The notes under the pieces: model-generated
What the model was told of the DNA's origin: nothing
The model's input: only the letters and a program-made list of their open reading frames with translations
The model's database searches: none
Source of the DNA: a virus
Taxonomy: Duplodnaviria; Heunggongvirae; Uroviricota; Caudoviricetes
Virus record (IMG/VR): IMGVR_UViG_2917413769_000002
Location: 1 to 41,543 of that record
Length of the DNA: 41,543 bases
Reading direction: 5' to 3' (one strand)
Shown: in pieces, positions 3,806 through 39,733 of the stretch
Layout of the letters: every line of letters begins with the position of its first letter
Position numbering within the stretch: the first letter of the stretch is position 1
Made by a program: the position numbers and the translations under genes

Positions 3806-3807
3806 GT

Positions 3808-4461
3808 TTAACCTCCCAGCGGCGCGGTATTGCTGCCGCCACTCTGTACGCCACCGTGCTTGTGTTTGTCGACGATAGAACCATCCACCAGCTGCAGGCG
3901 TCCGTCAGGCAGTATTTTCAGCCCATTCAGGTCGAACCCTCCCGGCGCGGTACCGGTTATCGCCCCGCTTGATGGGTTTAGGCTCAGCTTGGTCTCGCCA
4001 TCGTCACTACGCAACTCCACGCCGCTGGTGCTGATACCGCCGATTTTCTGCGCCTGCGACTGTGGTCCGACAATGCAGAACGCATCTGATAAATCATGCA
4101 CCCTATCGTCGACGGGCTCCTGCACACCGCCGCTTTGCCACCAGAAATCGATGCAGCGATCGGCAAATATCACCAGACATTCATCACCGGCCTTCACCGG
4201 GAACGTTAGCGTGCAACCGCCGCCGCGCGGAAACACCACCGGCACATCCACCAGCAGCGGATAATTATTCGTAATGCGCTTCCCGTCGTTATCGGTTTCA
4301 ACCGAACGGATAGCAGGCTGCACTACCGCAGTTACTGTTCCCGGGTCGAATGACTGAACGATTCCAGGCAACGCGACACGGATCTGGTTTTTTGTTGTTT
4401 CCCGCTCAGATTTGAGGGTTTCGGCAAGATCGCCGCTGCGGGTCTGGTCAGATACTGCCAT
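3808..4461 (-). CDS. baseplate spike / assembly protein V-like
   Basis: ATG at 4461 with GGAG 9 nt upstream; the longer ORF-track start at 4500 is a read-through of the upstream terminator hairpin; position upstream of W-J-I. Confidence 0.6.
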   Translation of the reverse strand: MAVSDQTRSGDLAETLKSERETTKNQIRVALPGIVQSFDPGTVTAVVQPAIRSVETDNDGKRITNNYPLLVDVPVVFPRGGGCTLTFPVKAGDECLVIFADRCIDFWWQSGGVQEPVDDRVHDLSDAFCIVGPQSQAQKIGGISTSGVELRSDDGETKLSLNPSSGAITGTAPGGFDLNGLKILPDGRLQLVDGSIVDKHKHGGVQSGGSNTAPLGG

Positions 4462-22631: not shown

Positions 22632-22695
22632 ACTGAACAATCCTCACTCAAAAAACATTATCAAAGCCACTCGGTGAATGGCTTTTGTAATGAAT

Positions 22696-24862: not shown

Positions 24863-25477
24863 TTAAATTCTGCGGAAAGCGTACGAAGCGACGCCCTTAC
24901 GCCCTAACTGGCATTCGATTGTGTTTTGCTCTGCGCAGGTGAAGCCCTGCTCTGCAAACCAGCGCCTGATACCTTCATCAGTGAAATACCAGATGTGCTC
25001 GTTCTTTCTGAAATGATGGGAGCGGAGAATGTCTCCGGCATCAGTGAAAATCGGGATCGACACGAAAACGTATTCACTGGCCTGCTGTACCGCCAGCTCC
25101 GGCTCGTCGATGTGTTCCAGTACATCCCACATCGTCAGTGCTCGCCACTTATTGGCGTAGAGATCTGCGAATGCGCCCCGCTCGTTCAGCCAGGCAATAC
25201 CGGCCGGATTAACGTCATACCCAAGCGTTCCCGGTCGGATAGAGACGAACTGACCGGCACCGATACCAACGTCGAGAACAGGGCCGTGAAAATGGCGATC
25301 CACCAGCTCAATACGGGATTGCGTTAAAGCTCTGCCCGTTTCGGTGTCAGCCAGCTGCTGATACTTTGCGAAATACTGCTCGTCATACGGGCGTGATGCC
25401 GGAACGGGGTAACGTCCGATCCCCAGCTCCGGTAAAAATACCAGCCCGCTTTCCAGTTCCTGATAAAACGACTTCAT
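24863..25477 (-). CDS. class I SAM-dependent methyltransferase
   Basis: motif I VLDVGIGAGQF and acidic motif II ...DVLEHIDEPE; ATG 25477 with GAGG upstream; 95-nt overlap with the upstream GT9-like ORF. Confidence 0.7.
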   Translation of the reverse strand: MKSFYQELESGLVFLPELGIGRYPVPASRPYDEQYFAKYQQLADTETGRALTQSRIELVDRHFHGPVLDVGIGAGQFVSIRPGTLGYDVNPAGIAWLNERGAFADLYANKWRALTMWDVLEHIDEPELAVQQASEYVFVSIPIFTDAGDILRSHHFRKNEHIWYFTDEGIRRWFAEQGFTCAEQNTIECQLGRKGVASYAFRRI

Positions 25478-26321
25478 GGAGCCAGGCCTCGAATTTATCG
25501 GAGAAATTTGAAATCCGCTTGTCGCAGTGGTGATCCCATGCTTCACAGCGGCAGTAATTGTCGGGAATTGCCCAGCCAACACGAGAAAGGTCCATCGCCG
25601 GATCGGTTACGATTTCCGGGGCGTTGTGGCCGCCCCGCCCACCAGCAACAACATAGACAGGCGTTCTGTAGGCGATGGCAGCAGGAAGCGCCCAGCCAAC
25701 CGGCGAAACCACTACGGCAGCGTGTTCAATCAGGCGCATCAGCGATTTAAAATTGAGCTGGCCGGAGTGCAGCCGCAGATCCGCTTCGGGAAGTTCGCCG
25801 ACCGCCCACTCTTCCCCCTCCTGCAGGTCAGCCACGCTGATCACACAGAAATGTTTTCGCAGTAACCGGGAGGCCTGCAGCAGATAATCAGGATCAGGGT
25901 TGCGAGAGTCGCTACGCCACTCAGATCGCACTGTTGCCGGGCGGATCACCGCAATCGGCTTTTGGTGGGTAAATTCCGCCGGGCCGAAGGAAGGCAGATC
26001 CAGCGCTGCTGGCTCTACGCCGAACTGCTGGCGCATAGCGTCAAAAATTGAGCCGCGCCGCAGGTGCTGTGGCCCGTAGAAAATGCGCTTTGTCTGGCGC
26101 ATATCCGGTGGCTGCTGGAAAGCGGCTTGCGTCCGGTATTCGTTCTTGCGTTGCGTTCGGAGCGTTGTAAAGCTACGAACGGGCAGAACGGGTAAATCTT
26201 CGTAGATTTCAGGCCAGGCGGTTTTGATGTAACTCCCCGGCGGTAACTGCTTTACGAAAGCCCGCTGGTAGATACTGTCACCCATGCCCAGCATGCCATC
26301 GATAAAAAGAGGAACGTTCAA
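25383..26321 (-). CDS. GT9-family glycosyltransferase-like protein (heptosyltransferase fold)
   Basis: N-terminal ...LFIDGMLGMGDSIYQ... and C-terminal ...VVSPVGWALPAAIAYRTPVYVVAGG... resemble WaaC/WaaF-type heptosyltransferases as recalled; TTG start coupled to upstream stop. Confidence 0.6.
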   Translation of the reverse strand: MNVPLFIDGMLGMGDSIYQRAFVKQLPPGSYIKTAWPEIYEDLPVLPVRSFTTLRTQRKNEYRTQAAFQQPPDMRQTKRIFYGPQHLRRGSIFDAMRQQFGVEPAALDLPSFGPAEFTHQKPIAVIRPATVRSEWRSDSRNPDPDYLLQASRLLRKHFCVISVADLQEGEEWAVGELPEADLRLHSGQLNFKSLMRLIEHAAVVVSPVGWALPAAIAYRTPVYVVAGGRGGHNAPEIVTDPAMDLSRVGWAIPDNYCRCEAWDHHCDKRISNFSDKFEAWLHEVVLSGTGKRAGIFTGAGDRTLPRSGITPV

Positions 26322-26869
26322 AGTGCGACCTCGCGAAGCGCCTCATTGAGGCTGAGCCGCCGGAAGCACTTCAGCGCAGTCTGGCGGCTGCTGTTAATGA
26401 TGTTGACCTTCCCGGCCAGCGCTCTGGCTGTACTGGCGAACTCGCCGCGCCACCGTTCGGCATTTTCTGCCGTTGGGTTATCGAGCCCAACATGATCACC
26501 ATGCCAGTGACTGCCATCAGCGACAGAACAGTCGAACCCGAGCAGAATGATATTTTTCGCGCCCAGGCTGGCGGCGAACAGAATTGATCGCTGACCTGAG
26601 TTGAACGCCCAGCGCGTGTCCGTATCGAAAAGGTGCAGGCCGTAGCGCGTGTGTGCCCGATAATTGCAGGTCCACAGGGCAGCCGAGGGAGGCAGAACGC
26701 CAATATTTGCATCCCACCAGCGAAGATCACCCGCGTAAATGTGCGAGCAACCCGGTACCGCGTGCCAGGACGAATTGACCGCTATGACGGGAAAGCCCGT
26801 GCTGATAGCCGTCTGACAATCGTCGTGAGTGAGGGATGGACCGGAAGCGCAGACGATCGCCGTGTTCAT
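26318..26869 (-). CDS. Rossmann-like putative glycosyltransferase (CstII / DUF115-like)
   Basis: ATG 26869 with GGTGA upstream; N-terminus MNTAIVCASGPSL...VIAVNSSW mirrors the GxGPSL...N motif of CstII-type sialyltransferases (from memory). Confidence 0.45.
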   Translation of the reverse strand: MNTAIVCASGPSLTHDDCQTAISTGFPVIAVNSSWHAVPGCSHIYAGDLRWWDANIGVLPPSAALWTCNYRAHTRYGLHLFDTDTRWAFNSGQRSILFAASLGAKNIILLGFDCSVADGSHWHGDHVGLDNPTAENAERWRGEFASTARALAGKVNIINSSRQTALKCFRRLSLNEALREVAL

Positions 26870-26967
26870 ACGAGAATCACCGTTTGATATTGAGCCGAAT
26901 AGCCCTTGCAATTGGCTCACACACTGAGCCGAATTTCCGAATGGCTGCCGCTGTCACCCGCATGGTG

Positions 26968-27219
26968 TCACGATTGCGAAATCACCACTGTTACAGCATT
27001 GGTGGTGATCGTATTCTGCCCGTCGCCGCACTTATCACAGGTGCTATCGTGACGCTCCATTGCAATAAACGCGGCGGCTATGCAACGCCCCAAATATTCA
27101 AAATCACTCACTCCCGAGTTAGCCCGAGCCACAATAAGCTGGCCCAGTGCGATTTTTGCCTGTGAGCGGGATTCAGAAGATAATTCGTTAAATTGCATAA
27201 CTGGCTCCAGAAACGACAA
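26968..27219 (-). CDS. hypothetical protein
   Basis: 83-aa ORF between Q and the enzyme cluster; no recognisable motif. Confidence 0.35.
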   Translation of the reverse strand: MSFLEPVMQFNELSSESRSQAKIALGQLIVARANSGVSDFEYLGRCIAAAFIAMERHDSTCDKCGDGQNTITTNAVTVVISQS

Positions 27220-27290
27220 AACCCCACCATTGCTGGCAGGGTTTCGATTATTAAGCGTTGTGTCGAAGTGACCACTCTTAACACGTTAAA

Positions 27291-27711
27291 CTAAAAAATG
27301 CGGACCGCACTAGCACTTTTTTGATTATTTTGAATGCTCACTACGGCGTCCATTTCCAGGCGAACATCCAGCATCGACAGGCAGCCTTCAATGAATCCCT
27401 CGGCAAGCAGCATCTCTATGCGTATCTGCTTTTCGCTTTTCTTCCTGCGCTTCGCCATCTGCCGTTTTGAATACCGGAGAATATAATGCCCGACCAGCAA
27501 GTGATAATCGTATGGGCATTTTTTTTATCAGGCGTGCCATGCAGCCCTCGATAATCAGCCCATCGTCGTCGGTACACATGATCCGCGTTTTGCTGGTTTG
27601 CGGAAGCAGCCCCTTAAAACCAGCAGCGATGGAAGAATAATCAATATTGCATGAATCGCTTGCCGCCCACGCGCCCCACATATCAAGAACCTTTTGCATA
27701 TCACGCATCAT
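27291..27711 (-). CDS. late antiterminator Q (QuuD-type), interrupted by an apparent frameshift (ORFs 27388-27711 and 27291-27500)
   Basis: N-terminal ORF MMRDMQKVLDMWGAWAA...IDYSSIAAGFKGLLP...CTDDDGL is Q-like as recalled; C-terminal continuation ...SMLDVRLEMD... in another frame; T8 run at 27519-27526 is the most likely shift site. Confidence 0.6.
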
Positions 27712-28679
27712 GCAGCCACCTTTTTCTTATAGAAAACCTGCTCACGGACCTGATCACCGTTCATGAGCATGTCGTTGAAATCGCCGTTATCAGGCCAGCG
27801 CACGCTGACTTTAACGATGTCATTTTTCGCCATGAGATTGGCGTGGGCGCACTCGAACGCCGCCGCCTGGCCGGTGGCAGAGTGTTTATCCATATCAGCG
27901 AAAATAACCAAGTGTTTTACCCCCGCCGGCGCACGGAATTTCTTCATGAAATTGCTGTTCATCACCGCCCAGGTATTCACGCCGTAGATCTGATAACAGG
28001 ACAGCGCCGTTTCGATACCCTCGGCGATCCCCAGCGTTGAGGAAACCGGAAACATGCGAATGGCTACAGAGCGGGCATATTCGAGATAGTTGTCTTCCTG
28101 CAGGGATTTTTGCCGTTTGGCGCTTTCGCCCAGCGGCGCTTTGCGATCCCCTTCGAGCAACGTCCGATGGAGATAGCACAGCTCACCTTTATCATCGGTG
28201 GCGAGGGCGTAGAGGACGTGATAAATCTTGCCAGCATGGCGCTGCTTATCGCAAAACCTGATGGCTTCAGCGGGTAATTTGTTGATCCCGCGCTGACGGA
28301 AATATCCGGCACCATTGGTACCGTGCAGAGCCGGAAGTTTTGAAAACTTGCTGATCACCCGCTGGCGCAGCTTCGCGGCGGAGCTGTGGGCAGGGATTTT
28401 TTCACGCTGGTAGTCATTACCAATAAGCTGATCCACCTCGGCGCAGAGTGCCGAGAAGGTTTTACTGGTCTGCGTGGCCGAAAGCAACTTCATGCCGTCG
28501 CCGCTGCCGCACACGCAGATCCATGTACCGGCACCATCGCGATCGTCTATACGGAACTTACCGCGTGCGCTGCATACCGGGCACTCCCCTTTGTAGTGGT
28601 TTTTCCCGGTTATTGGTGGCAGGCCGTAATGCTCAAATATTTCGGGCCAGCGGCCTTTCGCCGCTTCTGCTGTCTTCAC
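27708..28679 (-). CDS. DNA primase (zinc-binding + Toprim, P4-alpha / TraC-like)
   Basis: N-terminal Cys cluster CPVCSA...CVCGSGDG (zinc-binding); Toprim-like acidic motifs later; GTG start coupled to helicase stop. Confidence 0.7.
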   Translation of the reverse strand: MKTAEAAKGRWPEIFEHYGLPPITGKNHYKGECPVCSARGKFRIDDRDGAGTWICVCGSGDGMKLLSATQTSKTFSALCAEVDQLIGNDYQREKIPAHSSAAKLRQRVISKFSKLPALHGTNGAGYFRQRGINKLPAEAIRFCDKQRHAGKIYHVLYALATDDKGELCYLHRTLLEGDRKAPLGESAKRQKSLQEDNYLEYARSVAIRMFPVSSTLGIAEGIETALSCYQIYGVNTWAVMNSNFMKKFRAPAGVKHLVIFADMDKHSATGQAAAFECAHANLMAKNDIVKVSVRWPDNGDFNDMLMNGDQVREQVFYKKKVAA

Positions 28680-30292
28680 GCTGTTCTTCTCCCCAGCATA
28701 CTACGAATGTTAGCAACCTGATTTCTGGCGTTGATGATCCGGTTTGTGGTGTTGTCGGCGGGCTCCTCCGGCTGACTGCCGGACCTTTCCCGCCCCTTCG
28801 CAAATTTGATCTGCTTGTGTTTGATGTAGTTGTTTACCTCAGGGGTAATCTCCATCGGGAAATCGCTCAGCCCATTGGGCCACTCGTCGAATTTTTCGCG
28901 GAATGTATGCGCGCACCAGCCGTCACTGATGGGTTTACCCATAGAATTACGCTGGCGCTGATAGAATTTGATTTGGCTCCACCAGGACTGTTTGTCCGAC
29001 TTGGTGTAAACCTTTTCGCCCTTTTTGAGCTTTTTGATATTTCGCTGGGTGTCGGTTTCCACATCCTCCCCCACCAGTGGCTTAAAGCCGCATTTCGGGC
29101 AGACGTAGACGCCAGCAGGCTTCATGAAATGGCATTCCGGGCATTCCTTCGGAAGTTTTTCCTCCCGCTCCTCAGCCGTGCGGGCTGCGGCCTCTTTCAT
29201 GCCATCGTTTTTGGACGGGAGATCGTTGTACTCAATCGCGTCAGGAAACCCCAGGCGGTGGACGGTGCCACTGTGATCGAAGATGAGACAGGCGTCTTTG
29301 CCCGGTGCAGTGCGAAGACCGCGCCCGAGTGCCTGAAGCCAGCGAATTTCGCTTTTCGTCGGACGGGCGTAAATGACGCAGCGAACATCACTGTCGAAGC
29401 CCGCCACCAGCACGCCGACGCTGACAATGATTTTTGTCGCGCCAGTTTCAAAGCGGTGGATCATCAGCTGGCGTTCTTCGTGCGGCGTTTCGGCCACCAT
29501 CACCTCAGCATTCACGCCCGCTTTGTTGAACTGCATCGTGACGTAGTTGGCGTGGGCCTTATTGACGCAGAACGCCACTGTCGGAAGGTCCCGGCCGTTA
29601 CGCAGCCAGTTATCGACAATATCGCCCACCAGGTCAGAGCCGCACATAATCTCCGCCAGCTGCGCTTCGTCGTAGTCGCTGCCATACTCCATCGACGCTT
29701 TAGTTTTAACGCCTTTCAGATCCGGCTTTGTTGGCGCGTAAAATTCGTAATTACTCAGATCGCCACGCTGGATAAGCTCGCCGATGGTGGTCGGCTTGAT
29801 AAGGCGCTGGTAGTAATTCCCCAGGAAAGGTGAAAATGGGGTTCCCGACAGGCCGATAACCTTCGCTTTGGTTTCCGTGGTGATCCGCTCAATCTCTTTC
29901 AGAATGCGGCGTTTGCGCAGATGGGCTTCGTCGATAATCAGCAGATCGATATCCTGCGGGAATTCCCGGCGGATCAGCGTGTCGGCGCTGGCAATCTGGA
30001 TCTGCAGGCTGGGGTCATAGTTCGGATGGTCACGCCAGATAAAGCTGATCTGGTCTTCCGGAAGACCATACTGAGCGAAGCGCTGCGCCGTCTGGTTGAT
30101 CAGGATGGTGTAAGGGGCGACAAAGAGAACGCGCATACCACGGCTTACCAGACCATCAGTAACGAAAGCAGCCAGTCCAGTTTTTCCGCTGCCGGTCGGC
30201 ATATACATCATGAAAGATTCATAGGCCTTCCAGTCGCGGCGCAGCATGTTCAGCGCGCGTTCCTGTGCAAAATTTGGTGTGATGTTCAGCAT
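28676..30292 (-). CDS. SF2 (DEAD/DEAH-box type) replicative helicase
   Basis: Walker A MPTGSGKTG, DEAH-like box LIIDEAH, motif VI-like QALGRGLR; C-terminal Cys4 zinc finger CPECH...CPKCG; ATG 30292 with AAGGGG upstream. Confidence 0.8.
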   Translation of the reverse strand: MLNITPNFAQERALNMLRRDWKAYESFMMYMPTGSGKTGLAAFVTDGLVSRGMRVLFVAPYTILINQTAQRFAQYGLPEDQISFIWRDHPNYDPSLQIQIASADTLIRREFPQDIDLLIIDEAHLRKRRILKEIERITTETKAKVIGLSGTPFSPFLGNYYQRLIKPTTIGELIQRGDLSNYEFYAPTKPDLKGVKTKASMEYGSDYDEAQLAEIMCGSDLVGDIVDNWLRNGRDLPTVAFCVNKAHANYVTMQFNKAGVNAEVMVAETPHEERQLMIHRFETGATKIIVSVGVLVAGFDSDVRCVIYARPTKSEIRWLQALGRGLRTAPGKDACLIFDHSGTVHRLGFPDAIEYNDLPSKNDGMKEAAARTAEEREEKLPKECPECHFMKPAGVYVCPKCGFKPLVGEDVETDTQRNIKKLKKGEKVYTKSDKQSWWSQIKFYQRQRNSMGKPISDGWCAHTFREKFDEWPNGLSDFPMEITPEVNNYIKHKQIKFAKGRERSGSQPEEPADNTTNRIINARNQVANIRSMLGRRTA

Positions 30293-30420
30293 TATCAACC
30301 CCTTTACGTTTCACTCTTCCAGGAAAAACCTTTCCCGATTTCTTACCCGACCAACTGCGCATCACCTTGCTAGTACAGTGGCGATTTTGGGCTCTGTCTC
30401 TGAGATCAGCACCTACCTAA

Positions 30421-30620
30421 CCAATGGAGCTGCCTTCTGGAAAAGGCCTATTCCCATCCCTCTCCGATCTCCCCCCTTACCCCCCTCTTACCTCTCCCTT
30501 ATTCATGTACTAGATAGCTAGTACAATCAGGCGTAAAAAAAGTAAGTGGGTGGTCCCAGCTTCATCAGCAGCTGACGCCTTTAAGTCAGACTGCAACCAG
30601 GCACCTTTAAGCCCGGTATC
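30421..30620. promoter_or_regulatory. candidate origin / early-promoter region with repeats
   Basis: ~50-nt polypyrimidine tract with CTTAC-type repeats (30445-30500), perfect inverted repeat TGTACTAG-ATAG-CTAGTACA (~30488-30510), two CCTTTAAG copies. Confidence 0.35.
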
Positions 30621-30621
30621 G

Positions 30622-30915
30622 TCAGGCGCGCTGTTGCGTTCCTGCCAGAGGCGGCTGGGCCGTGTAGCCCTGAATTGCCCGCCCGTGTGTTTCAACGAAC
30701 CTGCGAAGCCTCACGTTGGCTTCATGCCTTGCCCGGTTCTCCCTGCGGTATGTAACCGGCTCGGCGTCAAACGTGATTTCGTAAACCTCTGCGTACTTCA
30801 GCGCGACTTTGCGGCGGAGGGACGGAGGCAAACTCAGTAACTGCTGCTGGATCCACGCTGCATCTGCCTGGCTGTAAGCCAATGGCAGATCAACCTGCAC
30901 ATAATCCGGGTACAT
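30622..30915 (-). CDS. hypothetical protein in the cII position
   Basis: 97-aa ORF from ATG 30915 with GGAGG 4 nt upstream; immediately downstream of cro; basic C-terminal region. Confidence 0.45.
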   Translation of the reverse strand: MYPDYVQVDLPLAYSQADAAWIQQQLLSLPPSLRRKVALKYAEVYEITFDAEPVTYRRENRARHEANVRLRRFVETHGRAIQGYTAQPPLAGTQQRA

Positions 30916-30932
30916 ATCGCCTCCGGGGCATG

Positions 30933-31193
30933 TCACACCTCGCTTTGCTCTGCGTGACTTGTTCCGCGTAACGTTTCAGGTAGTCCGTCATCAGTGCTTG
31001 GATATAAATCAGGGCGAATTTCATGTGGAATGACCTTCCAGCCCGTCAACTCACAGAGCTGTAATACAAATCGAGGCGGGATAACTGACTTGCTAAACCA
31101 CTGATTTACTGCCTGAGGCGTGATCCCTAACCCTTTAGAGATAGCGCGCTGAGAGAGCAATTCCCCCAAACGAGAGCGAACGATTTCGTTCAT
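30933..31193 (-). CDS. cro: Cro-like / YdaS-family HTH repressor
   Basis: 86-aa ORF divergent from cI; HTH ...ISKGLGITPQAVNQW...; SD GGTGA upstream of ATG 31193. Confidence 0.7.
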   Translation of the reverse strand: MNEIVRSRLGELLSQRAISKGLGITPQAVNQWFSKSVIPPRFVLQLCELTGWKVIPHEIRPDLYPSTDDGLPETLRGTSHAEQSEV

Positions 31194-31200
31194 AAATCAC

Positions 31201-31289
31201 CATCAAGTTAAATTTGATATTGAATGTAATATATCAAGTTTTAATTAACATGCAACACAAACACTTCTCATGTAGACTTGATATCAAGG
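31201..31289. promoter_or_regulatory. OR-like operator region between cro and cI
   Basis: three sites sharing ATCAAG/CTTGAT half-sites: ATCAAGTTAAATTTGATAT (31201-31219), TATCAAGTTTTAATTAACAT (31231-31250), perfect palindrome CTTGATATCAAG (31276-31287). Confidence 0.65.
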
Positions 31290-31345
31290 ATTGCTTTATT
31301 TTTATGCGTGATAATCTTGCGAGTAACCGACAAACTGGGAGAGGT

Positions 31346-31919
31346 TATGGACACCACAAACACGATCAACGAACTGCTAAAAATGAAGGGCTGGACTCAG
31401 CGAGAACTGGCTCGCAGGCTCAATGTCAGCGCCCAATCAGTTCAATACTGGACAACGGGGAAAACATTCCCAAGAGGTAAGCGACTTGCGCGGCTTTCGG
31501 AGATCAGCGGTCTCCCGCAATCATGGTTTCTTGGCGAGAAACAAAGCACGACTTTCCCTGCGGCCGCTGCACCAGATGAGCAGACTGATAGCGTTACTTT
31601 TAAGGTTCTTGATGTTGAATTCAGTTGTGGTGATGGGACGAGTGTAAAGGGGGACTTTGTTGATGTTGTCAGGTCAATAGAACTTGATCCAGAGTACGCC
31701 CGCCAGCTCGTAGGTAATAGACCATTCAAAAATATCGAGATAGGTAATGCTCGTGGGGACAGCATGTGTCCCACTATAGCCCCTGGAGACCTACTATTTC
31801 TCGATAAAACAGTTACATACTTTGATGGTGACGGGATCTACGCTTTCTGTTTTGATGGGGAATGTTATGTAAAAACGCCTGCAAAAGGTTGGCACAAAAA
31901 TAGTGGTCTTATCCGATAA
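31346..31919 (+). CDS. cI: CI-like repressor (HTH-XRE + S24 LexA-like peptidase domain), 3' end frameshifted; intact frame would end at 32025
   Basis: SD GGGAGAGG before ATG 31346; HTH ...WTQRELARRLNVSAQSVQYW...; S24 motif GDSMCPTI; removing one A from the A5 run at 31871-31875 restores ...YVKRLQKVGTKIVVLSDNANY... including the canonical VKRL. Confidence 0.8.
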
Positions 31920-32038
31920 TGCAAACTATCAAGCATGGAATATAGAAAAAGAAGCATTAAACATGCTCTACATCCAGTCAAAAGTAATATCCTCTGTTCC
32001 TTTCAACATCAATAGATTTGGATAATTAATTGATTTAT

Positions 32039-32056
32039 AACGGGCTTGTGCCCGTT
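32039..32056. other. stem-loop AACGGGC-TTGT-GCCCGTT downstream of cI
   Basis: perfect 7-bp inverted repeat; not followed by a clean U-run on either strand, so not called a terminator. Confidence 0.4.
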
Positions 32057-32074
32057 ACCTCGCTGTCTTCGCAT

Positions 32075-32154
32075 ATCATCAAGAAAATAATCAAGTTTAA
32101 CTTGACACAAATCTCATCTGGTCATAACCTCTAATCATCAAGTTAATCTTGATT
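32075..32154. promoter_or_regulatory. OL-like operator region upstream of the early-left operon
   Basis: palindromes CAAGTTTAACTTG (32092-32104) and ATCAAGTTAATCTTGAT (32138-32154) use the same CTTGAT half-site as the cro-cI operators. Confidence 0.6.
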
Positions 32155-32202
32155 AACTTAAACCAATGCGACACTACCGTGTTCATCGATTAGGGGAAGA
32201 AA

Positions 32203-32589
32203 ATGGATACTCTCAATAATTCGCTTAATAAAGCGCAAGCAGTCCTAAGCTCTCTCTTTGAAGCCTGCCACGAAATTGATATTTCTGAGATAGAAACAAA
32301 TCTGTCAGTCATTAATGCTTACTTATGTGATGCCATAGAATCTATTTCCAAAGGCGAAGGTAAGGGGATTACTCGCCCTACAGATAAAGAGTGTGATGAC
32401 GGCTATGATGATATATTTGGTGCGGTTGTCACTGCAGAAAAACGTAAAGAACTTACACATATATATTCTGAGAATTATTTCACAGATAAAGATAGTGACA
32501 ACCCATTGTGCCTTATGGCTTCAGTCATATTTGATTACGTAATAAAAATAAATGGCGAATTAAAAGCCATCAAAGAAAAGCTCAACTAA
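32203..32589 (+). CDS. hypothetical acidic protein, first gene of early-left operon
   Basis: 128-aa ORF in an AT-rich segment downstream of the OL-like operators; not N-like (acidic, no Arg-rich motif). Confidence 0.45.
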   Translation: MDTLNNSLNKAQAVLSSLFEACHEIDISEIETNLSVINAYLCDAIESISKGEGKGITRPTDKECDDGYDDIFGAVVTAEKRKELTHIYSENYFTDKDSDNPLCLMASVIFDYVIKINGELKAIKEKLN

Positions 32590-32774
32590 AAAAGGTGAAA
32601 ATCAAATACAGCTTAACCGCTGGGGATCTTTGCCAGCGTCTACGGGCTCCTTGTTCCTTCACTCATTTCGATGAAGGACACCGTGTCCGTTATCTCTGGC
32701 TTAGCACTGGCATTCCTGACCCCGCCGTGCCTCTACGCCATTTTTATGGGTCTGTCTTCCGGAAAGGATAAAAA

Positions 32775-33602
32775 ATGAAAAAGGTTATTTTCGCTGTTCT
32801 GATTTCCGCCGCCGCTGCTGGCCTGACTGGCTGCGATCGTGTCGAACCCGGCAACGTAGGTATCAAGGTGAACAAGCTGGGCGACGACAAAGGCGTTGGT
32901 GAGGTTGTCGGCGTTGGCCGCTACTGGACCGGCTGGAACACGGAGGTCTACATCTTCCCGACCTTCAAACAGATGAAAACCTACGACGACGCGTTCAATT
33001 TCCAGATGAGCGACGGTACGACAATCGGTTATCACATCGGCGTGGCGTACAAAGTTGATCCAACCAAAGTTACCACCGTTTTCCAGACCTACCGGAAAGG
33101 CGTGGACGACATTACCGATACCGACCTTCGACAGAAGATCGCCGATGCGCTTAACCGTCTTGCCAGCCGCATGAGCACCGACAAGTTCATTGATGGTGGT
33201 AAAGCGGATCTGCTGGAAAGTGCCCTGAAAGAGATCCAGTCCGACATGGGGCCGGTCGGCATTCAGGTTATTAGCCTCTCCTATGTTGGCCGTCCGGAGT
33301 ACCCACCGACTGTTATCGACAGCATCAACGCCAAAGTCACCGCCAACCAGAAGACGCTGCAGCGCGAGCAGGAGGTGAAACAGCGTGAAGCTGAAGCCAA
33401 CATGCTGCGCGCGGAAGCGGATGGCCAGGCAGACGCAAAACTGAAGCTGGCAGAAGCCGAAGCGAAATCTATCCAGATCCGTGGGCAGGCCATGCGTGAA
33501 AACCCCGAGGTGCTGCAGCTGGAAGCCATTAACAAATGGAACGGCACCCTGCCGCAATACATGACCAGCGGCGCTGGCACTCCATTTATCCAGGTTAAGT
33601 AA
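32775..33602 (+). CDS. SPFH / band-7 (prohibitin-like) domain lipoprotein
   Basis: N-terminal lipoprotein signal ...AAAAGLTGC; SPFH-like core followed by an Ala/Glu/Lys-rich coiled-coil (...QREQEVKQREAEANMLRAEADGQADAKLKLAEAEAK...). Confidence 0.7.
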   Translation: MKKVIFAVLISAAAAGLTGCDRVEPGNVGIKVNKLGDDKGVGEVVGVGRYWTGWNTEVYIFPTFKQMKTYDDAFNFQMSDGTTIGYHIGVAYKVDPTKVTTVFQTYRKGVDDITDTDLRQKIADALNRLASRMSTDKFIDGGKADLLESALKEIQSDMGPVGIQVISLSYVGRPEYPPTVIDSINAKVTANQKTLQREQEVKQREAEANMLRAEADGQADAKLKLAEAEAKSIQIRGQAMRENPEVLQLEAINKWNGTLPQYMTSGAGTPFIQVK

Positions 33603-33650
33603 TCGCACCAGCCCGGTGTAGCGCCGGGCTAACAGAAAAATGAGGCTGAA

Positions 33651-33875
33651 ATGAAAATTGACTTCAACGACTACGGGGCCGTGGCATCGGTGACGCTCAC
33701 CAGCACTATCTTTGAGTTTCGCAAGCATAACCGGGTGGTCGACACCACTCTGTTTCTGGTGCCGGGAGTGGTCAGCGAACGGCGCGGCTCCTTCTTCATG
33801 AAGACGTTTATCTCAGGGAAAACCCGCGATGCGCTGCGGGCTTATAAAACCGTACAGCGTGAGGTGAAACGATGA
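33651..33875 (+). CDS. hypothetical protein
   Basis: 74-aa ORF 48 nt downstream of the SPFH gene. Confidence 0.4.
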   Translation: MKIDFNDYGAVASVTLTSTIFEFRKHNRVVDTTLFLVPGVVSERRGSFFMKTFISGKTRDALRAYKTVQREVKR

Positions 33876-34080
33876 GCAAAGGCCAACAACCAGCCTAGCC
33901 ATGCCCCAGTAACGCAACCCCCTACGGCATGACATACCGCCAGTACCTGGTAAGTCAGCTTGCGCCCGTAGTCGCTGCGCAGTTCTTCGAAAGCAATGCC
34001 TGGGATGATTACGACGACATGGCCGGATCACTAATGATGATGGTCGACAGCATTATTGAAGCGGAGAAGGAGACGGCAAA

Positions 34081-34674
34081 GTGAGCAAAATTCAGAACCC
34101 CGTGGTGATTATTCACAAACGAGAAAATAGCGATACCTACGCTGTCGCGATAACCAGCGGCAGCAGTGACTACCGCGATGCGGTTTTGATGGCAACAATG
34201 GAGCCGGATATGACGGGTGATTCTGTCGATACCTGGAGTAAAACTGGCTACTACATGGCAGCAGAGATCGAACGTCTGCGAGCCCAGAAACAACCCGAGT
34301 ATCCAGAGTTGTTACCCTGCGCTGTTGAATTAAAGCCAGGCCTGATTATCGGAAAAGGGTGTAAGACAAACACCATGCTGGAGTCATTGCAACGGCGTGC
34401 TGATTATTACGCCGAAATTGATGCCATGACCCCAGAGGAGCGCGTTAAGCATGACACCAATATTGAAGCGGTTAAAGCAATGCTCCCTTCTGTTTCGCCG
34501 GCGGCGGCCACAGCCAAAACGCTGACCATAAATCTGCCCGATATCAGCTCGAAGGCATTCTGGAGCGGTACAGGTAAGAGCGAGGTTTTCCATCCTGAAA
34601 CCTACCGCCGCTGGGTGAAGGAAGCGATCGAGCGTAATTGCGTTATCGCAGGTATTGAGGTGAAGGTGAAATGA
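34081..34674 (+). CDS. hypothetical protein
   Basis: 197-aa ORF in early-left operon. Confidence 0.45.
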   Translation: MSKIQNPVVIIHKRENSDTYAVAITSGSSDYRDAVLMATMEPDMTGDSVDTWSKTGYYMAAEIERLRAQKQPEYPELLPCAVELKPGLIIGKGCKTNTMLESLQRRADYYAEIDAMTPEERVKHDTNIEAVKAMLPSVSPAAATAKTLTINLPDISSKAFWSGTGKSEVFHPETYRRWVKEAIERNCVIAGIEVKVK

Positions 34675-34697
34675 TTAGCAATTCCCCATAACCCAAG

Positions 34698-34985
34698 ATG
34701 GTAGCGTCAGGCCGCATTCGCCATCGCCATTACCTGATCACTGTTCACGCTCTCGAACGTTATATCGAGCGTATTGGCGGCGATGCTGGCGACATGATTG
34801 CGGAAATAGACAACTCATGGTTGTTCGATTTTAACCAAAGAGGCCACTCTCGCAGATGTTGTGCTTCAGCAGTTGCTGCCGATCGCGCTGGTGGTTATAC
34901 GCTGAGTAGCGGGCGGGCAATGTTTATCGTGTTCCCGAAAGAACAACACGCGATCGTGACAACGTTATCTACGGAGGTGAAATAA
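34698..34985 (+). CDS. hypothetical protein
   Basis: 95-aa ORF; stop overlaps next start. Confidence 0.4.
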   Translation: MVASGRIRHRHYLITVHALERYIERIGGDAGDMIAEIDNSWLFDFNQRGHSRRCCASAVAADRAGGYTLSSGRAMFIVFPKEQHAIVTTLSTEVK

Positions 34986-35344
34986 TGTCCGATGTTAGCC
35001 GTGGCCCAGTATCGACACTTCCCGGACAATTTTCAAATGTTCCAGTTGGCGCAATGTGCGATGAACATCCGGAGAAAAACGCGGTAAGACGAATACAGGG
35101 TGAAACTGATTCAGTTGGCTGTGAATACCACGATATGTGCCAGGAATGCTTAGAGGAACATTTACGCGCATCCCGTGAAGCTGATTATTCAGGTAAATGT
35201 GATTGGTGCAGAAAACATGCCGATCACTTGTACCCTCATCGGGATATCGAGGAGGGGAGCTGCGGACGTGTCTATGAGGTATGCAAACCTTGTATTGAGG
35301 CAGAGCGGCAACGCTGGGAAGAAGAAGATGAACAAGGCTTTTGA
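34985..35344 (+). CDS. Cys-rich putative zinc-binding protein
   Basis: 119-aa ORF with ~10 Cys in CxxC-like pairs (CDEHPEKN..., CQECLEEH, CDWCRKH, CKPCIE). Confidence 0.45.
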   Translation: MSDVSRGPVSTLPGQFSNVPVGAMCDEHPEKNAVRRIQGETDSVGCEYHDMCQECLEEHLRASREADYSGKCDWCRKHADHLYPHRDIEEGSCGRVYEVCKPCIEAERQRWEEEDEQGF

Positions 35345-35474
35345 AATGTGGGTTCGCAAGCGGTACGGAAACCGCTACGACCTGTCGCGAGATTGCGAAG
35401 GTTTCTATTGCCGGGAAGTGGTTAAGCGGATGTTTGATGTGTGGTGCCACTGCCGTGGCCTGAGCGTGGTTTAG
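35328..35474 (+). CDS. small Cys-containing hypothetical protein
   Basis: 48-aa ORF MNKAFEMWVRKRY... from ATG 35328, overlapping the end of the previous gene. Confidence 0.3.
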   Translation: MNKAFEMWVRKRYGNRYDLSRDCEGFYCREVVKRMFDVWCHCRGLSVV

Positions 35475-35484
35475 CGGAGGAAAT

Positions 35485-35667
35485 ATGAGTACAGACTTCA
35501 TGACAGAACAAGAGGTTTCTGAGTTGCTTCAGAAAAAAAGAACAGCTTTATATAACCTCAGAAAAAAACATGGTTTCCCTGAGCCAGTCCTCACCCACCC
35601 AGCGAGATATAGCCGCAAAGCCGTGGAAAACTGGATCAGTGCAGGCGGAGTTAACCGAGCTGTTTAA
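35485..35667 (+). CDS. AlpA / excisionase-family HTH protein
   Basis: 60-aa ORF; position next to and convergent with the integrase. Confidence 0.6.
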   Translation: MSTDFMTEQEVSELLQKKRTALYNLRKKHGFPEPVLTHPARYSRKAVENWISAGGVNRAV

Positions 35668-36820
35668 CGTGCCAGAGGATTTTATCAGCATACAGCTCGT
35701 AAGCTGCTTTCTGCTCAGGTAACCAGTCGTGTTTATTATACACGGCCATCACCCCGCCAAGCTCGTGCCCCAGCATCTTTTCGGTGACATGGGGCATCAC
35801 CCCTTCTGCAGATAAATTCGTTACCAACGAACGGCGGAAATCATGCGTTCGCCACTCCGGGATATCGATTTTACCTCTCAATTTTTTCATATAGAGATTT
35901 GACGACGAACGGTCTATAGCGCGGTCAAGCGTCTGTCCGGGAAACAGCACAGAGTTCCCACTATTCAGCAGCCGCTCAACATAGGGTTTAACCTGGTCAA
36001 AGATAGGCCGTCGGATGACATTTCCCATCTTGGAATGCTCAGATGGAGTCGTCCAGATCAGATCATCCATATTGAACTCATCCGGCGTTGAAAGCCGCAG
36101 CTCAGATAAGCGTGGTCCCCAGAGCAATAGCAGCTGGTGCAGCACTTTATTGGAGGAGACGATCTTGTTATTTTCCAGTGCCAGCCAAACCTTCGCCAGT
36201 TCGGTGTATGTTAACACCCGCTCACCGACGTCAGGCTTCTTGCCTATGGTTTTCACACTTAACTTCATCAGCTCGCATGACGGAACCAACTGCCGGCTGA
36301 TGCACCAGTTAATTACCGAGCGTAGCTGTAACAGCAGAACGCGCGCTTTCTTTTTGTTCAGGCTTTCCTGTTTATCGAAAAAACGCACCCATGCAGAAAC
36401 CGGTACATTCGCCACTGGCGCATCTTCAAATTGTGTGTACATCGTGTTGTACACGACCGATTTATAAAGCGTCTGGGTGTTGGGCTTCAGACCGGATGCA
36501 TACTTATCCCACCACTGATCAAGGCATTCTTTGAGTGTCAGCTCGCCATCTTCACGGGCAAAATAATTTTTGGGGTTCACACCCTTCGTGTACAATGCGC
36601 GCATCTCACCGACGATAACCCTAGCGTCCTTGAGGGATGTCGAAGGATAGCGGCCAACCGTCAGGCGCACTGGTTTACCGTTCCATCGATAACGATACTG
36701 AAAAGTGATTGTGCCAGTTGGCGTGATCCGGGCACTGAGACCATCACCATCGGTGATTTCTGGTGCCGCAGAATACGGTTTACCGTTGATGCTCCGTAGT
36801 TTAGTGTCGCTGAGTGCCAA
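35651..36820 (-). CDS. int: P4-type tyrosine integrase
   Basis: C-terminal catalytic region ...WRTHDFRRS...GHELGGVMAVYNKH...; N-terminal ALSDTKLRSI...KPY... block typical of P4-family integrases; likely TTG start at 36820 (ORF track extends to 36931). Confidence 0.8.
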   Translation of the reverse strand: MALSDTKLRSINGKPYSAAPEITDGDGLSARITPTGTITFQYRYRWNGKPVRLTVGRYPSTSLKDARVIVGEMRALYTKGVNPKNYFAREDGELTLKECLDQWWDKYASGLKPNTQTLYKSVVYNTMYTQFEDAPVANVPVSAWVRFFDKQESLNKKKARVLLLQLRSVINWCISRQLVPSCELMKLSVKTIGKKPDVGERVLTYTELAKVWLALENNKIVSSNKVLHQLLLLWGPRLSELRLSTPDEFNMDDLIWTTPSEHSKMGNVIRRPIFDQVKPYVERLLNSGNSVLFPGQTLDRAIDRSSSNLYMKKLRGKIDIPEWRTHDFRRSLVTNLSAEGVMPHVTEKMLGHELGGVMAVYNKHDWLPEQKAAYELYADKILWHVKQLG

Positions 36821-37015
36821 TGCGCTATATCCTGTACACAAGGGTTTCAGGCATTCTGTACTCAATCTGTACTCAATGGCAAGTGAACGAACGCAAATAT
36901 CAGCATAAACAAGCTGGTAAATGATGAACAAAGACGCACTTACATCTTGATGTCAAAGCAGTAAAGGCGGTAGAATCAGCATCACGGTGAACAACCAAAA
37001 ACATCGCCGATCAAT

Positions 37016-37090
37016 GTCCCCTTAGTTAAATGGATATAACGAGCCCCTCCTAAGGGCTAATTGCAGGTTCGATTCCTGCAGGGGACACCA
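37016..37090 (+). tRNA. argW: tRNA-Arg (anticodon CCU), argW-like
   Basis: 75 nt: 7-bp acceptor stem GTCCCCT/AGGGGAC, T-arm GCAGG-TTCGATT-CCTGC, anticodon loop CTCCTAA, 3' CCA encoded. Confidence 0.9.
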
Positions 37091-37250
37091 TTTATCAGTT
37101 CGCTCCCATCCGTACCAGTCCGCAAAATCCCCTGAATATCAAGCCTTCCGTATATTCACGGTTCGTCATGGTTCGCGTCAGATCGTTGACAGCCGCACAC
37201 CATGACGGGTAAAAAGTGGATAAAATAATTTACCCACCGGATTTTTACCC

Positions 37251-37802
37251 ATGCTCACCGTTAAGCAGATTGAAGCAGCAAAGCCGAAAGAAAAACCATA
37301 CCGCCTTCTCGATGGTAATGGCCTGTACCTTTATGTTCCTGTATCCGGGAAAAAGGTATGGCAGCTTCGCTACAAGATTGACGGTAAGGAGAAAATCCTG
37401 ACCGTCGGAAAATATCCGCTTATGACTTTGCAAGAGGCAAGGGATAAGGCATGGACCGCGAGGAAAGATATCTCGGTTGGCATAGATCCGGTAAAGGCGA
37501 AAAAGGCTTCGTATAACAACAATTCCTTTAGTGCGATTTACAAGGAATGGTACGAGCATAAGAGGCAAGTATGGTCAGTCGGCTATGCGACTGAACTTGC
37601 CAAAATGTTTGACGACGACATTTTACCTATCATCGGCGGTCTTGAAATTCAGGATATTGAGCCGATGCAACTTCTTGAAGTAATCCGCAGATTTGAAGAT
37701 CGCGGTGCAATGGAGCGAGCCAACCTTACTATATCTCGAATAGCACAAAGCCTTGCAATCCAGTGCAAAGCTTTGTGTGTCTCAGTTTTGTCTTACGCTT
37801 AA
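37251..37802 (+). pseudogene. truncated P4-type (IntS-like) integrase, N-terminal ~180 aa only
   Basis: starts 161 nt downstream of the tRNA 3' end in the same orientation; N-terminal KPYRLLDGNGLYLYV...GKK.W block; ends where AT-rich DNA begins. Confidence 0.7.
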
Positions 37803-37822
37803 ACGTATCTTTTTATTTAGAA

Positions 37823-38849
37823 TTATTTGATGCATTTAATTTTAGATTTTCTTTTCAAAATTAAGCCGCATGGAATCTCAATATATTTATAGCTTAAGTA
37901 TGAAGACAGAAGAATAAGTACTATAATTGGTACAACCATCAATAATTTATCTAACATATAGATATCACATAGCTTATTTATTATACATATAATGATCACA
38001 TGCGAAAGATATGTCGAGTATGACCAATCTCCAAGTTTAGATGCAATTCTTGATATAGTGCTATTGCCAATATTGTTTTCAAGACATAAAGCGGAAACAA
38101 TTAAAGCAGCGCAAGGGATTCCAATTTGGAGAAGTCTTTTTGATTCATTGCTAAAAAATATACTTATCAGTGATAATACGGATATTGTTAGTGCAGTTTT
38201 AACACCGATATTTCTGAATAGCCCATTATTATAACATATAGCTATTACCCCCCCCCATAACAAACTCAAACAACAGTTCATCATTATAGAAAAGAAATAC
38301 AGTAGACTCATTATTGCCAAGCCATGAAAACAAATTCATTACAACAAGAGGAATTAGAATACAGCAAATTTTTTTGTTGTTTTCAGGGAATAACAGAGAA
38401 ATAAATACGCACGTATAAAATAGCATTTCAAAATTAAGAGTCCACCCAACCGTTAGGGTTGGAATATACCAACCTATCTGTTGATTCATTACCGGAATAA
38501 AAGCAAGGCTTTTTAATACATTATTTAATCCAATCTCAGCAAACGGAATAACTCCGTGAAAATTGTATGATATTACCACTACCAGCAATGTGTAGAACCA
38601 ATATGCAGGAATAATTCTTACCATCCTATTGAGAGCAAATGACGTAGGTGTAATATTATTTTTCGATATTGACTTATAAATAATAAAGCCACTTATGATA
38701 AAAAACATATCGACACCATTGCCAGCCTTAAGTGCAATAGTGTGCATCAATTTGGATGATGCAGACCATTGAAACATGACTTGAGAAATATGATGATAAA
38801 CAACTGCCCAAGCAGCAAGTGCTCTTAAGATTTGTATTGACTTAATCAC
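37823..38849 (-). pseudogene. acyltransferase-3 family membrane protein (O-antigen acetylase-like), split by a frameshift at a G9 tract
   Basis: ORFs 38229-38849 and 37823-38320 overlap at a C9 run (38247-38255, plus strand); G8 would fuse them into a ~350-aa acyltransferase_3-like protein; strongly AT-rich region. Confidence 0.65.
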
Positions 38850-39478
38850 GGATAAATCCTAATGTTTTTTCATGCATTTTATACTATACCGATCGAAAGT
38901 CCAGTTCTCTTTTCCCATATCATACTATTCGCAATATACGGTGTAAAAATATGATAAACATCAACTTCCTTATTAATGTGTTAATAAACCATTTTTGTTA
39001 AATGCTTTCTATGCCCAATAAGAATCAATACTATAAGTTATAGAACCTTTTATTGTGGCATCAACATTGACATCGCTTTTATGTACAGGATCACAATCAG
39101 GGTTGTTAAATTTGTAAAAATCAATGTAATCATTTCCGCGATCGATGGCTCGCCGTAAACACTTGCCACCCAGTTGTCAAACCAAAAGTTATGGAAATAA
39201 CGCCAGATACTTGGTTTGCGGCTTTGTGCGGTTGGTTTCTCATTCTCATTTAACCTGATTGTTCTGCGAATACGTTCAGTCTTATAATAAACTCTATAGT
39301 AACCAAACTTCCATTTTGATGATATTTAACATCCCTAGCTAAAAGTCCAATACCATTTGTCGAATCACCAAATGTTATCGTAATCTCACCATCAATAGAG
39401 CGTCGTTCTCTTAATGACTCTAGTTGCAAGGCATTCTGAACAGATGTAATTCATGCTGCATAGATATTAGCCGAAGTG

Positions 39479-39733
39479 TTATATACAATAGTTGACCCTG
39501 CCAATAGTTAACCCTGCAGCGTCATCTGTACAGCCAATTAGCGGCATTCCCGTGCCAAATTTACCGCCATTTATGACAATATGATTACCTGGGCCATGTA
39601 TGTAGAAGTTCCATGAATATGATTTCCCCCACGAAAGCATTGGATTATTAAAAGTTACGTAATTATTATCTTTAACAGAAACAATCTGATCCCCCCCATC
39701 TTTTGGTATGCATATATACCCAATAAACATCAA
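39479..39733 (-). CDS. hypothetical protein, possibly a gene remnant
   Basis: 84-aa ORF in AT-rich DNA between the acyltransferase gene and the IS630-family remnant. Confidence 0.25.
   Translation of the reverse strand: MMFIGYICIPKDGGDQIVSVKDNNYVTFNNPMLSWGKSYSWNFYIHGPGNHIVINGGKFGTGMPLIGCTDDAAGLTIGRVNYCI

Follow-up and report, generated by a model that had tools for sequence, protein, structure and literature searches.

A conserved pair of genes for a predicted membrane hairpin and an SPFH lipoprotein in the mosaic early-left operon of a temperate Escherichia prophage

Lipoproteins with an SPFH (Band 7) domain constitute a known phage family, annotated in hundreds of phage genomes, for which roles have so far only been proposed. 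Members of this family, phrog_200, include phiP27 L05, phi1026b gp48, P88 gp12, SSU5 gp062, and Pylas gp29, and in Kayvirus, according to one paper, the lysis region contains a short cluster that includes both an SPFH gene and a holin-like membrane gene. Why such a lipoprotein is found in a phage genome “remains unclear,” in the words of a 2026 paper, and the literature we searched offered no functional work on what the family does in phages. Here we analyze nucleotides 32203 to 35474 of a 41,543-nucleotide stretch of DNA (IMG/VR record IMGVR_UViG_2917413769_000002, the whole of which is hereafter called the window), which holds most of a temperate prophage with contractile-tail genes in Escherichia sp. 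E1130 and which carries a gene for such a lipoprotein. The five phage proteins named above are 38 to 84% identical to that of the window, and each is preceded by the same small upstream gene. In comparison with these phages, it is only in the window that this upstream gene is truncated.

The upstream gene belongs to family phrog_1130 (“membrane protein”). It lies directly 5′ of the SPFH gene, encodes 62 to 64 amino acids (aa) with two hydrophobic helices, and is called the hairpin gene below. The two genes are represented in the window as follows.

32617 to 32778, + strand: 5′-truncated remnant of the phrog_1130 hairpin gene, preceded by an in-frame TAA (32614 to 32616); its stop codon overlaps the ATG of the SPFH gene (ATGA).
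32775 to 33602, + strand: SPFH/Band 7 lipoprotein of 275 aa, with a signal peptide and lipobox LTGC (Cys20), Asp at position +2, SPFH domain at residues 22 to 208, coiled coil at about 186 to 246, and a conserved C-terminal KWNGxLP motif.

We examined the surroundings of the SPFH gene in 84 related loci, comprising 80 viral contigs with an SPFH protein 81 to 96% identical to that of the window and four reference phages. A relative of the hairpin gene lies upstream of the SPFH gene in 79 of these loci, and in 77 its stop codon overlaps the SPFH start codon (ATGA). The other genes of the region accompany the SPFH gene in 28 loci (74-aa protein), 21 loci each (48-aa and 128-aa proteins), 10 loci (51-aa open reading frame, ORF), 6 loci (197-aa protein), or none (95-aa and 119-aa proteins). 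Moreover, sister prophages with a 100% identical SPFH protein have five to seven called genes between the leftward early promoter (PL) and the pair, versus only the gene for the 128-aa protein here. This low co-occurrence indicates that the gene set is a mosaic and not the single system that an earlier reading, made from the sequence alone, had in view. The region is an ordinary mosaic early-left operon of interchangeable accessory genes rather than a new system, and the phrog_1130–phrog_200 pair is its sole conserved unit. The conserved partner of the SPFH gene is the hairpin gene upstream, truncated here, and not the downstream neighbor that had been proposed for testing alongside it. Nor is the gene set undescribed, as had been supposed: eight of the ten reading frames of the PL operon match a catalogued PHROG family (the hairpin remnant having been scanned in its 52-aa form, not in a 35-aa form that starts at an ATG), with none for the 95-aa ORF, and the lipoprotein is already annotated in phiP27 and phi1026b.

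The ratio of nonsynonymous to synonymous substitution rates (dN/dS) for the hairpin gene is 0.13 to 0.17, which signifies purifying selection and therefore argues that the gene encodes a real protein. A single family profile, phrog_1130, covers the versions of Fraca, P88, Pylas, SSU5, the P1-like RCS47, and a Pseudomonas phage, and the loop between the two helices retains the pattern P-x-L-[IF]-[SND]-x-x-[SDT] from Enterobacteria to Leptospira and Sphingomonas. We considered whether the hairpin protein could be an NfeD protein, the partner in prokaryotic SPFH-NfeD operons, and rejected this identity because nine partner proteins gave no match to NfeD (PF01957), nor a significant match to any other Pfam family. 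A 58-aa ORF at 32595 to 32771 was likewise rejected as a gene, as it runs out of frame across the conserved hairpin gene. The hairpin gene is translationally coupled to the lipoprotein gene, and the pair moves between temperate and N4-like (virulent-type) phages as a two-gene cassette.

The cassette occurs in the lambda-like phages Fraca and phiP27 and in Klebsiella prophages, in the P2-like P88, in the P1-like RCS47, wherein it stands alone among tRNA genes, in the plasmid-prophage SSU5, where it adjoins recombination and replication genes, and in the Klebsiella phage Pylas (Schitoviridae), where it lies among genes for virion-RNA-polymerase subunits and dUTPase. The N4-like Schitoviridae are known as a virulent family. 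In RCS47, the two-helix phrog_1130 ORF (78 aa; 3284 to 3520 of the examined locus) overlaps the SPFH start and is missing from the RefSeq annotation.

To extend this survey to bacterial genomes, one genome per species was scanned with an alignment of nine diverse SPFH lipoproteins as the query. The scan yielded 440 relatives, among them proteins from Pantoea, Lelliottia, Shigella, Yersinia pestis, Morganella, Pseudomonas, Dyella, Leptospira, Caulobacterales, Sphingomonadales, and Bacteroidales. In 31 of the 47 genomic relatives that share 32% identity or more, spanning Morganella to Leptospira and Sphingomonas, an ORF with two or three transmembrane segments abuts the SPFH start, and a recognizable pair of hairpin and SPFH genes reaches Pseudomonas, Dyella, Leptospira, Caulobacterales, and Sphingomonadales. 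The plant pathogen Pantoea stewartii ATCC 8199 encodes an SPFH protein 100% identical to that of the window (3001 to 3825 of the examined locus) behind an intact hairpin gene, and a plasmid-size 108-kb contig of Yersinia pestis has a 75% identical copy with an SSU5-type partner. More distant SPFH genes are present in Kayvirus, in large (220–230 kb) Caulobacter phages, and in crAss-like and Lak phages.

The SPFH protein of the window matches Pfam Band_7 (PF01145) over residues 22 to 208 (108.1 bits, where the gathering score is 23.6; E 6.8e-31) and the “lipoprotein” family phrog_200 over residues 1 to 274 (E 2e-110), and relatives are found in 690 phage records. These matches, together with the LTGC lipobox, agree with the earlier description of the protein as a membrane lipoprotein. 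Among 104 homologues with a recognized lipobox, the residue at position +2 is Asp in 99 and Glu in the other 5. Asp at this position is an established Lol-avoidance signal in Enterobacteriaceae. The lipobox and Asp+2 thus suggest that the protein is retained at the inner membrane and that its SPFH domain lies in the periplasm, on the same side as the SPFH domains of HflK and HflC.

HflC (E 8e-06 and 2e-05) and HflK (E 0.004 to 0.009) are the only characterized proteins that were detected by sequence, and the scores lie far below the NCBIfam equivalog cut-offs for both (24.8 versus 134.4 bits for HflC; 14.9 versus 660 bits for HflK). Residues 114 to 230 align with a region of HflK that includes the coiled coil of that protein. 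Length differences among homologues within residues 186 to 246 or so come in blocks of exactly 11 residues, which suggests that the helical phase of a coiled coil is preserved. Both observations fit the long coiled coil that had been noted previously.

Purifying selection on the SPFH gene is unusually strong for a phage accessory gene. Over 63 distinct alleles the median dN/dS is 0.010, falling to 0.006 in the SPFH core and to approximately 0 in the coiled coil, and alleles from unrelated phage types are 72 to 96% identical. The family is also common in prophages of clinical Klebsiella, Enterobacter, and Salmonella and of Shiga toxin-producing Escherichia coli.

The copy of the cassette in the window is damaged. 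Within the hairpin gene, the window parts from the sister prophages: the start codon and about the first 11 codons are replaced by sequence running on from the gene for the 128-aa protein. The 3′ two-thirds of the gene are kept, and the remnant matches phrog_1130 profile positions 14 to 57 of 66. Sister prophages with a 100% identical SPFH protein carry an intact hairpin gene of 62 codons. Possible products of the remnant are 35 aa from the ATG at 32671 or 52 aa from a CTG at 32620, with no recognizable ribosome-binding site for either. Approximately 1.1 kb downstream, a change of TAT to TAG at 33896 to 33898 breaks the phrog_2728 gene, which is intact in the sister prophages. Both lesions lie in stretches that are identical to an independent NCBI assembly and to a Logan assembly of the element, so that they truly belong to the strain. 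The SPFH ORF, for its part, is undamaged and retains its own Shine–Dalgarno sequence, and its product matches the copies of Pantoea stewartii ATCC 8199 and the sister prophages at 100% identity. If an intact cassette is defined as an intact gene for two transmembrane helices whose stop overlaps the SPFH start, then the window is without one. The cassette may be impaired here, given the 5′ truncation of the hairpin gene, and because the partner gene is broken, the window copy is a poor choice for a functional test.

The genes follow a cI-type repressor gene and a putative control region.

31347 to 32025, + strand: cI-type repressor (HTH_3 and S24), 225 aa in the public record; the window copy is split by an extra A in the homopolymer at 31871 to 31875.
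32090 to 32153, + strand: putative left operators and PL promoter, consisting of two ATCAAG-N5-CTTGAT palindromes around a TTGACA −35 element at 32102 to 32107.

The palindrome ATCAAG-N5-CTTGAT is found twice between the cro-like gene and cI (31202 and 31283) and twice shortly before 32203 (32090 and 32137). The window has seven matches versus 1.66 expected, and none of the shuffled sequences gave seven; four of the matches are at the right and left operators, and the other three are scattered. The repeated operator palindromes and their position indicate that 32203 to 35667 is a repressor-controlled leftward early operon, which bears out the placement made by the sequence-only reading, and the 32090 to 32153 segment would serve as its promoter. 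The genes of this operon are closely spaced, and terminator-like sites are not in excess. Because promoter- and terminator-like sites in the region are no commoner than in shuffled sequences, these scans say nothing on independent expression of the cassette. In sister prophages, the cassette begins 9 nucleotides behind the preceding gene, which leaves no room for a private promoter. Of the earlier suggestion that the lipoprotein is made early or in the lysogen, the first half agrees with a repressor-controlled early unit, whereas the second does not, since the gene lies downstream of a repressor-controlled promoter with, in sister prophages, no space for one of its own.

The absence of recombination genes, also noted earlier, holds at the profile level: no ORF of the PL operon, and none of the early-right ORFs scanned, matched a Pfam or PHROG family for Red, RecT, Erf, exonuclease, or Gam. 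By blastp, no protein of the operon resembles any lambda PL protein, Exo, Bet, and Gam included, and neither these scans nor blastp against lambda proteins recognized a cII- or cIII-like gene in the window. With PADLOC-DB 2.0 there was no defense-system match for the SPFH protein or for seven other ORFs of the operon; the helix-turn-helix (HTH) of the excisionase resembles MAD1 of the MADS system, which is a generic HTH match.

We tentatively favor a reading wherein the cassette encodes a membrane scaffold, similar to HflKC, that sits on the periplasmic side of the inner membrane and acts during lytic growth. The lipoprotein would be exported, lipidated at Cys20, and kept in the inner membrane by Asp+2 with its SPFH domain facing the periplasm, and, in the manner of other SPFH proteins, it would oligomerize through its coiled coil and C-terminal motif into a ring or cage. 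Its partner, the hairpin, would be an N-in/C-in protein of two inner-membrane helices, exposing only its conserved loop to the periplasm, and it could nucleate the SPFH assembly or be enclosed by it. Early in lytic development, the assembly might then remodel or shield part of the host inner membrane, directed at a conserved host component or at membrane integrity and lysis timing, to the benefit of the phage's own cycle. We prefer a scaffold because the cassette is found in a phage of the Schitoviridae as well as in temperate phages, occupies an early-operon position that in sister prophages leaves no room for a private promoter, spans a broad range of hosts, and is under extreme purifying selection. 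Likewise, the lack of a PADLOC match, the occurrence in a Schitoviridae phage, and the strength of selection make us lean toward a function that is aimed at the host and serves the lytic cycle of the phage itself. Several points weigh against this account. An ORF with two or three transmembrane segments is found at the SPFH start in just 3 of the 33 genomic relatives below 32% identity, the strength of retention by Asp+2 depends on the residue at +3, which is Arg here, and strong purifying selection is compatible with a defense role too. Published statements on the role of the family are all speculation, and a Pasteurella prophage protein that is HflK/C-like by the paper's description has been reported in outer-membrane vesicles (PMC9872710).

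Superinfection exclusion or abortive infection, which the sequence-only reading had put forward, would have the SPFH assembly and the hairpin protein block the entry of other phages' DNA at the inner membrane or trigger membrane failure. The predicted site on the periplasmic face of that membrane is where phage DNA enters, the operon position implies early expression, and the cassette behaves as a mobile accessory unit that in RCS47 is inserted alone amid tRNA genes. There are also analogues in T4 Imm, a small membrane protein, T4 Sp, a membrane-anchored periplasmic protein, and the lipoprotein Ltp of Streptococcus phage TP-J34. We nevertheless regard exclusion as unlikely, as no PADLOC model matches, no independent promoter was found, and nothing points to expression in the lysogen. 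A dN/dS of 0.01 with near-identical alleles across unrelated phages is unlike that of arms-race genes, a host spread from Enterobacteria to Bacteroidales, with Staphylococcus and Caulobacter phages, fits a generic host target better, and the literature searched holds no report of defense by this family. Another reading is an HflKC mimic that acts on FtsH from the periplasmic side or takes the place of HflKC, altering the turnover of phage regulators and thereby tuning the choice between lysis and lysogeny in functional analogy to cIII. In its favor, HflK and HflC are the only characterized relatives detected by sequence, the predicted topology is shared with HflKC, and the gene lies in the operon that in lambda encodes cIII, an inhibitor of FtsH. 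This idea has been raised in papers on Burkholderia phage CSP3 and Pseudomonas element AH14b. It seems quite improbable for the present family, whose scores are far under the HflK and HflC family cut-offs, which has neither a transmembrane anchor nor a second SPFH paralogue, and which occurs in a window where no cII- or cIII-like gene was recognized. The cassette is also present in an N4-like Schitoviridae phage, and N4-like phages are not known to make a lysogeny decision.

Given the damage described above, it might be supposed that in this prophage the cassette is a decaying relic, wherein the SPFH protein is made without its hairpin partner and has no or residual function. The loss of the hairpin start codon and first codons, the nonsense codon 1.1 kb downstream, the agreement of independent assemblies on both lesions, and the replacement of five to seven sister-prophage genes between PL and the cassette by one gene are consistent with decay. 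Set against this are an SPFH ORF that is intact, identical in product to the Pantoea stewartii and sister-prophage copies, and equipped with its own Shine–Dalgarno sequence, as well as a possible 52-aa (CTG) or 35-aa (ATG) product that retains the loop and second helix; we judge decay to be very unlikely. We give least credence of all to a role in lysogenic conversion, with the lipoprotein changing the envelope or the virulence of the host. The Pasteurella multocida prophage protein Pmorf0222, described as HflK/C-like, has been reported to enter vesicles and to stimulate TLR1/2, and its deletion attenuated virulence in mice (PMC9872710); the abundance of the SPFH family in prophages of clinical strains would suit such a role. 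However, Pmorf0222 is a putative homologue of phrog_200, TLR2 stimulation is a generic property of lipoproteins, and the phrog_200 gene sits in a repressed early operon and is found also in a Schitoviridae phage and among phages and prophages whose hosts are environmental bacteria. Beyond the scaffold reading that we favor, a bolder and rather doubtful version holds that the pair is a self-contained mobile “membrane cage” that builds an HflKC-like enclosure at the periplasmic side of the inner membrane and thereby bars incoming phage DNA or controls a host membrane protease such as FtsH. If this were true, the cage would represent a new, widespread class of phage-encoded membrane effector.

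The remaining genes of the operon, and the integrase beyond it, are arranged as follows.

32203 to 32589, + strand: first PL gene, encoding an acidic 128-aa protein (pI 4.5; GC 0.36; phrog_27579).
33651 to 33875, + strand: basic 74-aa protein, phrog_1001, found in 28 of the 84 related loci.
33872 to 34084, + strand: phrog_2728 gene, 70 aa in sister prophages, here with TAG at 33896 to 33898 and a 51-aa restart ORF from 33929.
34081 to 34674, + strand: 197-aa protein, phrog_492/phrog_2960, in which conserved modules at the N and C termini flank a hypervariable middle.
34698 to 34985, + strand: 95-aa protein without a family match; relatives in sister prophages have 103 to 107 aa.
34985 to 35344, + strand: acidic 119-aa protein with nine Cys and an acidic tail at its end, phrog_15864.
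35328 to 35474, + strand: 48-aa protein with four Cys, phrog_3871, whose profile covers exactly these residues.
35485 to 35667, + strand: excisionase (HTH_17/AlpA-like), the last gene of the operon (HTH_17, 28.6 bits versus a gathering score of 27).
35651 to 36931, − strand: tyrosine integrase, outside the PL operon, convergent with xis (17-nucleotide overlap) and adjoining tRNA-Arg(CCT).

All ORFs listed by the sequence-only reading are real and lie on the + strand where it placed them; its inventory lacked the hairpin remnant (32617 to 32778) and the 51-aa ORF (33929 to 34084). The latter matches phrog_2728 profile positions 20 to 69 of 70. Homologues of the 128-aa protein (31 to 58% identity) are encoded directly after cI in 21 of the 84 loci, and the protein has no Pfam, PDB, or PADLOC match. 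An N-like antiterminator was considered for this first gene and rejected, because the protein is acidic and does not resemble N.

Relatives of the 197-aa protein are labeled “ATPase” or “Ead/Ea22-like” by their sources, and neither name is borne out by Pfam, blastp, or profile comparison. None of 25 family members matches the Pfam Ead/Ea22 model or has any Pfam match at all, and alignment of the family with lambda Ea22 by hhalign gave a probability of 0.4%. The likeness to Ea22 is limited to architecture, in the form of a variable middle between conserved ends, and to the source name on one relative. The AlphaFold2 model of the 197-aa protein (mean predicted local distance difference test score of 58) is too poor for a structure search, and searches of PDB sequences with the 197-, 119-, and 128-aa proteins returned nothing usable.

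In 40 homologues of the 119-aa protein, C25, C52, C72, and C100 are invariant, and H28, C55, C75, and C103 are kept in at least 90%; the protein may bind zinc. Its family is small (64 clusters), with members ranging from Enterobacterales to Mesorhizobium. The structure is predicted confidently and has no significant match among solved structures, and with the candidate PADLOC model PDC-M20A there was one sub-threshold match (E 0.0077), in which no stretch passed. The small Cys protein encoded next is most likely 48 aa long because the phrog_3871 profile covers exactly the residues of 35328 to 35474. Its gene is found in 21 of the 84 loci, including phiP27, and lies just upstream of xis wherever xis also is detected.

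The convergence and overlap of xis (+ strand) and int (− strand) are unlike the arrangement in lambda, and this segment has 77% DNA identity to the int-xis segment of the Shiga toxin (Stx) phage vB_EcoP_24B. In a near-identity DNA search against phages and E. coli genomes, only the int-xis segment matched, at 77% to Stx phages, and an exact-junction search in representative genomes found nothing. The prophage host is thus no standard E. coli.

Elsewhere in the window are structural genes for baseplate J, a DUF3383 protein that is probably the tail sheath, the portal, and the major capsid protein, a lysis block with holin, lysozyme, and Rz-like spanin, a Q-type antiterminator, replication genes for a primase and a superfamily 2 helicase, and a cro-like gene. 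The prophage, assigned to Escherichia sp. E1130 by exact protein matches, adjoins tRNA-Arg(CCT) at 37016 to 37090. Nucleotides 26772 to 39603 are the same as the public contig VATL01000008.1 of this strain save four single-base homopolymer insertions, with zero substitutions. The extra bases lie in the homopolymers at 27519, 30535, 31871, and 38248, outside the 32203 to 35474 region; two of the four sites were compared with the Logan read assembly as well. Among their effects, the Q antiterminator has 107 rather than 138 aa, cI is split, and an acyltransferase gene is split (C8 to C9). The insertions look like assembly or sequencing errors rather than biology.

A second tyrosine recombinase of 337 aa (Phage_integrase, phrog_1; 21627 to 22640, − strand) is encoded between the lysis block and terminase, far from the integrase at the attachment site. 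Three accessory genes occupy 24863 to 26920 (− strand), between the Q antiterminator and the lysis genes, at the position of the toxin genes in Stx phages. Their products are a sialyltransferase-like protein (phrog_4603), a phrog_6804 protein, and a methyltransferase, and the three could be a surface-modification moron cluster. Just past tRNA-Arg(CCT) is a truncated P4/IntS-like integrase fragment (37251 to 37802, + strand), followed by a low-GC (0.33–0.42) stretch with an Acyl_transf_3 gene (37823 to 38849, − strand). This arrangement suggests that what is left of a further element lies here, at the tRNA site that the prophage also adjoins.

With regard to position, the operon is comparable to the exo-xis/b-region genes of lambda (orf60a, orf63, orf61, ea22, and ea8.5), which fill the same slot between early functions and xis. 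Both sets consist of small mosaic genes with one variable-middle protein and one Cys-rich protein, and the genes of the window are like the non-essential lambda genes in position and variability. Nevertheless, they have no detectable sequence similarity to any lambda protein, and lambda red, gam, kil, cIII, and N are absent from the operon. T4 Imm and Sp, TP-J34 Ltp, and HK97 gp15 offer a functional analogy, in that these are small membrane or lipid-anchored proteins of the cytoplasmic membrane, some of them early. They have no sequence or domain kinship with the cassette proteins and are narrowly distributed and divergent, whereas phrog_200 is broad and highly conserved.

Like the two HflK/HflC subunits (of 334 and 419 aa), the phage protein (275 aa) has an SPFH domain followed by a coiled coil and would be oriented toward the periplasm on the inner membrane. 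It differs in being a lipid-anchored product of a single SPFH gene, whereas HflK and HflC are a heteromeric pair with N-terminal transmembrane helices. The SPFH-NfeD operons, such as those for QmcA-YbbJ and PH1511-PH1510, likewise couple an SPFH gene tightly to a small membrane-protein gene. The phage partner, however, is a hairpin of 61 to 78 aa in the enterobacterial-phage versions examined, without the OB-fold or protease domain of NfeD, and the phage SPFH domain is predicted to be periplasmic and lipid-anchored. MbpS/MbpV of Kayvirus resemble the cassette in combining an SPFH gene with a small holin-like membrane protein in a short cluster, but the identity is only 27–28% along part of the protein (E 7e-7 to 8e-9) and the cluster belongs to the lysis region of a Gram-positive phage. 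To these described systems we add the definition of a coupled two-gene cassette, its inferred topology, its distribution, the selective constraint on it, and a damaged copy. The cassette thereby becomes a concrete unit for tests on membrane integrity, lysis timing, FtsH, and phage exclusion.

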